Assembly: GCF_003018255.1 (NCBI RefSeq)
Contig: NZ_CP027440.1
Direction: 5' to 3' (one strand)
Source of the DNA: Escherichia coli
GTDB lineage: Bacteria; Pseudomonadota; Gammaproteobacteria; Enterobacterales; Enterobacteriaceae
DNA length: 64,000 nucleotides
Shown: piece by piece, positions 53,384-53,464 of the stretch
Layout: every line of letters begins with the position of its first letter
How positions within the stretch are numbered: the first letter of the stretch is position 1
The notes under the pieces: generated by a model
Databases searched by the model: none
Told to the model about the DNA's origin: nothing
Seen by the model: only the letters and a program-made list of their open reading frames with translations
Made by a program: the position numbers and the translations under genes

Positions 53384-53464
53384 GCGGAATGTTTTATCTA
53401 TTTGTCATTAAATGTTGGAGAACAGGCCGGAGCGTAATTCACACATCCGGCCTTATTTTTAAGC

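Follow-up and report, generated by a model that had tools for sequence, protein, structure and literature searches.

The locus studied here raises the question of whether cbrC (yieJ), which is expected between cbrB (yieI) and yieK, is really missing from it and, if so, in which direction the change went and what it means for the CreBC regulon. We analysed the window, i.e., the whole stretch of 64,000 nucleotides of E. coli DNA, starting from an initial annotation made from the sequence alone. It had reported that cbrB and yieK are 81 bp apart, that the gap holds only a hairpin followed by a T-run, and that cbrC, expected there from the K-12 order yieH-cbrB-cbrC-yieK, is absent, with a possible effect on colicin sensitivity. 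Every structural claim of that annotation is supported. The spacing is exact by ORF coordinates, the inverted repeat and the T-run that follows it were located in the gap (Table 1), and MG1655 has the gene order given for K-12. Realignment placed no cbrC in the interval, K-12 does not have the same junction, and a tblastn search with K-12 CbrC found no CbrC coding sequence in the 64-kb window (best E = 0.7). What the annotation had missed is that the cbrC-less junction is a common and published haplotype.

Gene content of the cbrB-yieK locus

The window has the order yieH-cbrB-yieK-yieL-bglH-bglB-bglF-bglG-phoU, with the bgl operon between phoU and the yie genes, and the region is collinear with an annotated relative. 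In K-12 MG1655, cbrB is followed by a 48-bp spacer, the 588-bp cbrC, a 61-bp spacer, and yieK; strain GN03204 likewise has cbrB, cbrC, and yieK. The K-12 CbrC protein (195 aa) matches PF03691 (UPF0167) with E = 2.2e-69. The window and K-12 are alike in the position of cbrB after yieH, in the cre tag upstream of cbrB, and in the hairpin and T-run before yieK, but they differ in the presence of cbrC and in the length of CbrB, which has 157 aa in the window and 155 aa in K-12. The two CbrB proteins align end to end with 92% identity, and the two extra residues of the window protein lie in a short stretch that reads QVLPL instead of H--PI. This two-codon indel (window 53039-53053, codons 44-48) tracks the cbrC status in the four alleles that we compared: the 157-aa CbrB is encoded by both cbrC-less alleles and the 155-aa CbrB by both cbrC-bearing alleles.

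A 56-aa ORF at 53389-53559 (+) was rejected as a gene: its start codon lies in the gap and was made by the junction, and the frame crosses the hairpin and runs antisense to yieK. The yieK product has 240 aa in the window and in K-12 (ending in ...AAAELALG), 238 aa in strain W409 (ending in ...AAAELA), and apparently also 238 aa in Escherichia sp. MOD1-EC7003. The shorter form results from a small indel at the stop codon, the window counterpart of which is the 3' end of yieK (53465-53480).

Table 1. Coordinates of the features of the cbrB-yieK locus, and of related features elsewhere in the window.
Feature	Position	Strand	Evidence or remark
Second perfect cre tag, TTCACAAGGACTTCAC	24718-24733		~50 bp upstream of the cbrA position in a collinear relative
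cre tag TTCAC-N6-TTCAC, TTCACACTCCCTTCAC	52847-52862	+	Exact match; 48 bp upstream of the cbrB start codon
cbrB (yieI), intact, CFT073-type allele, 157 aa	52910-53383	+	ORF
cbrB-yieK gap	53384-53464		Exactly 81 bp
First 16 nt of the gap, from the start of the cbrB-cbrC spacer	53384-53399	+	Homology to cbrC-bearing strains
18-nt junction segment, ATTTGTCATTAAATGTTG	53400-53417	+	Occupies the place of 633 nt in K-12
Retained downstream flank of cbrC, begins GAGAACAGGCCGG	53418-53464	+	Contains the hairpin and T-run
Inverted repeat arms AGGCCGGA / TCCGGCCT	53424-53431 and 53446-53453		Followed by T-run TTATTTTT at 53453-53460
yieK (bglK), last bgl-island gene, 240 aa	53465-54187	-	ORF converging on cbrB; PF01182, E = 2.4e-15; named yieK in relatives
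bglH, bglB, bglF, bglG, phoU, pstB	55398-63156	-	

The locus is the CFT073-like bgl type II form

A CFT073-like bgl locus with only yieI/cbrB downstream was described as type II by Sankar et al. (2009, PLoS Genet, PMC2646131), as distinct from the K-12-like bgl variant, which has both yieI and yieJ. In that study, all type II strains, including those of Table S1, belong to phylogroup B2, and the type occurs in the complexes of ST73, ST95, and ST12 and in STs related to them. The window is like type II in its gene order, in the missing yieJ/cbrC, and in its CFT073-type yieI, and we found no structural difference between the two. The published CFT073-specific yieI primer S587 ('CFT073 yieI 115-145') has an exact match at 53024-53054, and none was obtained in the window for the K-12 yieI primer S586, even with 3 mismatches allowed. 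The window locus is the CFT073-like bgl type II form, and the absence of cbrC from this form has been known since 2009. Our analysis adds to that description the direction of the change (a deletion), the anatomy of the junction, and its frequency in finished genomes.

Table S1 of the same study marks eight type Ib strains as ΔyieJ, among them ECOR4, 31, 58, and 69 (PMC2646131). We found a second family of cbrC-less alleles, exemplified by W409, that plausibly corresponds to these strains, judging from its K-12-like yieK and yieL. These genes are 99.0% and 99.8% identical, respectively, to those of K-12, versus 95.6% and 96.3% to those of the window, and the deletion allele of W409 therefore sits on a mosaic background. 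The junction segment and the 157-aa CbrB are common to W409 and the window, but across the junction region the two have an identity of only about 92%. Absence of cbrC is not general in phylogroup B2: ST131 belongs to this phylogroup, and ST131 genomes match cbrC.

The cbrC-less junction is frequent among E. coli genomes

We searched 5426 complete E. coli genomes with a 141-bp junction query, using a coverage threshold of ≥80%. The window junction is present in 602 of them (in 391 at ≥99% identity), and at least 730 of the 5426 carry the junction when the W409 allele is the query. The K-12 cbrC query matched 3550 genomes, leaving 1876 without any cbrC match, and some cbrB/yieK match was found in 4306. 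Since 3550 and 730 add up to roughly 4306, cbrC and the junction appear to be mutually exclusive. In the majority of the other genomes, the locus presumably has the Z5211-5214 replacement known from published work. These figures make cbrC a part of the accessory genome, with about a third of the complete E. coli genomes lacking a match. In the type strain ATCC 11775, CbrB is the same protein as in the window, and the gap is again 81 bp long, with a single base difference. The nearest matches to the window include a canine UPEC isolate as well as human and avian isolates. Phylotyping markers are absent from the window, but these matches, the CbrB of ATCC 11775, and the B2 membership of all type II strains in Table S1 indirectly support a B2 host. 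The loss of cbrC is thus ordinary, being both published and common to more than 700 complete genomes, including the type strain. The K-12 gene order is an unsafe reference for B2 strains at the cbrB-yieK locus.

The same counts bear on the idea that the junction is an assembly or sequencing artefact, or that cbrC has moved elsewhere in the source genome, of which 64 kb were inspected. An artefact would have to recur in each of the 602 independently finished genomes, including the 391 that are nearly identical to the window, and in the type strain. Relocation fits poorly with the mutual exclusivity of cbrC and the junction, and also with a scan for CbrC peptide patterns in one representative genome per bacterial species, which returned no E. 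coli cbrC locus. The E. coli representative in the scanned collection is presumably the type-strain assembly GCF_003697165.2. We give practically no weight to either version, and treat the junction as genuine.

Outgroups point to a deletion of cbrC

The scan of representative genomes found cbrC in E. albertii, Escherichia sp. E1V33, Escherichia sp. MOD1-EC7003, and Pseudocitrobacter vendiensis. All four outgroups have the arrangement adeP-yieH-(cbrB remnant)-cbrC at the same locus. The upstream flank of cbrC (GCGGGATG.TTTATCT...CAGACAGGAT.TTTCTATG) is as in K-12 in three of the four and is more diverged in E. albertii. Three of the four have no bgl island, and phoU-pstB come right after cbrC; in MOD1-EC7003, cbrC is followed by the same hairpin as in E. 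coli and then by yieK-yieL-bglH. The cbrB remnant sits between the cre-tag region and the intact cbrC. In MOD1-EC7003 (L005:4870-4952), only the first 31 nt and the last 52 nt of the gene are left, joined at a CACG microhomology. A stub between yieH and cbrC is also present at the other three loci (L004, L006, and L007), and it is more decayed in E. albertii and Pseudocitrobacter. The loci of E. albertii (type V of Sankar et al.) and of the other Escherichia species are like the window in the yieH neighbourhood and in the presence of a cre-tag-like sequence, but they show the reverse loss, with cbrB reduced to ~31 + ~52 nt and cbrC intact.

Because cbrC and a cbrB stub occur together at the same outgroup locus, the two-gene cbrB-cbrC arrangement is ancestral, and the window has undergone a deletion of cbrC. 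The comparison of these loci indicates that the window state is a deletion of roughly 615 bp and not the product of an insertion elsewhere. The opposite polarity would have the cbrC-less state as ancestral, with cbrC inserted between cbrB and yieK in K-12-like lineages. It would suit phylogroup B2, which is generally regarded as an early branch of E. coli, and the near gene-sized segment that is missing (spacer and cbrC, up to about its stop codon). It would also agree with Sankar et al. (2009, PMC2646131), who proposed a horizontal origin for yieI and yieJ. However, an insertion would have to be reconciled with the outgroups, all four of which have cbrC at this locus directly behind yieH and the remains of cbrB, with a K-12-like upstream flank in three of them and no bgl island in some, and with the cbrC of ST131 genomes. 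We consider it extremely improbable and retain a deletion as the origin of the window state. The same arrangement of genes shows that cbrB-cbrC predates the bgl island, the two genes being old residents beside yieH in Escherichia and Pseudocitrobacter. This is a small correction to the 2009 picture, in that cbrB and cbrC did not arrive with the bgl island.

The boundary of the island on the yieK side could also be placed: in cbrC-bearing strains, it coincides with the cbrC stop codon (window 53418 onward). Island carriers have TAG, TTATTTAAATAATGAGAACAGG, and the hairpin after cbrC. The island-free species (L004, L006, and L007, just after position 5585) have TAA, an unrelated sequence with its own hairpin, and then phoU.

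Anatomy of the junction

The gap can be divided into segments of different origin (Table 1). Its first 16 nt read GCGGAATGTTTTATCT in the window and GCGGGATGTTTTATCT in GN03204 and in Escherichia sp. MOD1-EC7003. The 633 K-12 nucleotides replaced by the 18-nt segment comprise the rest of the spacer, cbrC, and 14 nt past the cbrC stop codon, and the net difference in length between the window and K-12 is 615 bp. About 30 nt of the cbrB-cbrC spacer have gone along with cbrC. On the other side of the junction, the 41 nt at 53418-53458 agree at every position with the K-12 sequence downstream of cbrC; they span the hairpin and the greater part of the T-run.

The origin of the 18-nt segment is ambiguous. 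A MAFFT alignment of the window, K-12, and GN03204 misplaced the long gap, and the flanks were compared directly instead; when a long gap was allowed at almost no cost, the 18-nt segment was spread in pieces over cbrC, and the alignment gave no breakpoint information. We compared two microhomology models. The first has a deletion between AGACAGG and AGAACAGG repeats, with the right breakpoint inside the island, and the second joins TTTATCT to the cbrC stop codon. They yield 73-77 and 76-80 identities, respectively, over about 90 columns, and the exact breakpoints are not recoverable because both models fit about equally well.

The second cbrC-less allele family (W409, L014) has the same 18-nt segment with 3 substitutions. 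That this segment and the 157-aa CbrB are common to both families argues for a single deletion event. The junction flanks differ by 4-8% from the cbrC-bearing alleles, which suggests that the cbrC-less haplotype is old, and it has probably moved between lineages by recombination. With such an old, probably recombined haplotype, a single deletion that later spread is the simplest account, even if it is not proven.

The position of the junction also evokes a loss of cbrC through the arrival or exchange of the bgl island, in which the recombination that brought the island replaced cbrC and no separate deletion occurred later. The change from TAA and unrelated sequence to TAG and TTATTTAAATAATGAGAACAGG marks the cbrC stop codon as the border of the island towards yieK, one of the breakpoint models has the deletion stop only a few bases from this border, and the haplotypes at the locus are mosaic. 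However, the AGACAGG/AGAACAGG model, with its right breakpoint inside the island, fits about as well. The coincidence is weak, since many right ends would leave yieK intact, and the island sequences of both haplotypes are otherwise collinear. We regard a replacement by the island as very unlikely, and favour a separate deletion.

A probable terminator behind cbrB

The hairpin and T-run in the gap are those found after cbrC in K-12 and GN03204, and in the window they stand directly behind cbrB. The hairpin has 8-bp perfect arms and an imperfect inner stem, and UUAUUUUU comes next on the + strand. It folds with -15.8 kcal/mol on the + strand (z = -5.0) and with -20.3 kcal/mol on the - strand (z about -5); on each strand, 0 of 200 shuffles fold as well. 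A scan of 52700-54400 for consensus promoters and terminators called nothing; the hairpin escaped it because 14 nt separate the perfect arms and the loop limit was 8 nt. An Rfam search of 52700-53700 (E up to 1) gave one chance-level match, to a Dictyostelium snoRNA (E = 0.97). From its structure, the hairpin with its T-run is probably an intrinsic terminator. The U-run is on the cbrB strand; read along the yieK strand, the hairpin precedes UGUUCUCC, and the element is predicted to be a weaker terminator for yieK than for cbrB.

CreBC control and colicin E2 tolerance

The motif TTCAC-N6-TTCAC, which we take from the work of Avison and Cariss to be the CreB-binding site, has two matches in the window, versus 0.13 expected by chance. 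One lies upstream of cbrB and the other before the position of cbrA (Table 1). Given the latter, cbrA, a Cre-regulated colicin M resistance gene, appears to be retained.

We are confident that the CFT073-like form arose through an old deletion of ~615 bp that removed cbrC; a one-gene, CreBC-controlled cbrB unit is the likely result. Starting from an ancestral two-gene cbrB-cbrC unit, this deletion took cbrC and most of the spacer, leaving cbrB, the upstream cre tag, and the hairpin and T-run formerly located after cbrC. It was inherited by a large E. coli lineage that includes ST73, ST95, ST12, related B2 clones, and the type strain, and is also found in the second, more K-12-like allele family. 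In these strains, cbrB would still be transcribed from a CreBC-dependent promoter, with a transcript now ending at the retained hairpin. They would make no CbrC and should have no CreBC/CbrC-dependent colicin E2 tolerance.

In K-12, cbrA, cbrB, cbrC, and creD are induced together, and cbrC is induced by colicin M with other genes of the Cre regulon. According to papers that cite the primary study on CbrC (Cariss et al. 2010, J Bacteriol 192:3329), colicin E2 tolerance is tied to the overproduction of YieJ/CbrC in CreC-activated ('Cet') mutants. In one study, disruption of yieJ had no measurable effect on fitness. Since tolerance is tied to a hyperactive CreC, the expected effect of losing cbrC is the loss of an inducible route, and a change of the baseline is not implied. 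The effect on colicin sensitivity put forward in the initial annotation is a reasonable suggestion, and the prediction that follows is a narrow one: such strains should be unable to gain CbrC-dependent colicin E2 tolerance via activation of CreBC.

The opposite losses in sister lineages, one keeping cbrB and the other cbrC, could reflect selection instead of neutral decay, and the loss of cbrC might even be coupled to the arrival of bgl. We find this rather unlikely. If it were true, CbrC might, for instance, be costly to extraintestinal B2 clones, or the functions of CbrB and CbrC might interact.

Other divergence within the window

Upstream of cbrB, the E. coli alleles of yieH (window 52178-52843) fall into two classes that are deeply diverged from each other. 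The window and K-12 alleles have 81% nucleotide identity, falling to 67-68% over the most divergent 200 bp (52298-52498). The window type is diverse (2297 of the 5426 genomes, at 91-99.9% identity), and the K-12 type is close to clonal (3115 genomes, with an identity of ≥99% in 3112). As the yieH of the outgroups resembles the window type, the K-12 allele has the appearance of one that entered by introgression and then spread.

Further differences were seen in the comparison with MS20653, which is otherwise collinear with the window. A 689-bp stretch of the window at 12388-13076 is replaced by only about 157 bp in MS20653. The window stretch contains the istR sRNA at 12440-12569 (-), detected with 150 bits, and a 29-aa ORF at 12874-12963 (+), which we take to be the TisB toxin. 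At 6388-6527, between uhpT and uhpC on the MS20653 annotation, the window has about 118 bp more than MS20653, and these extra 118 bp may be a repetitive extragenic element.
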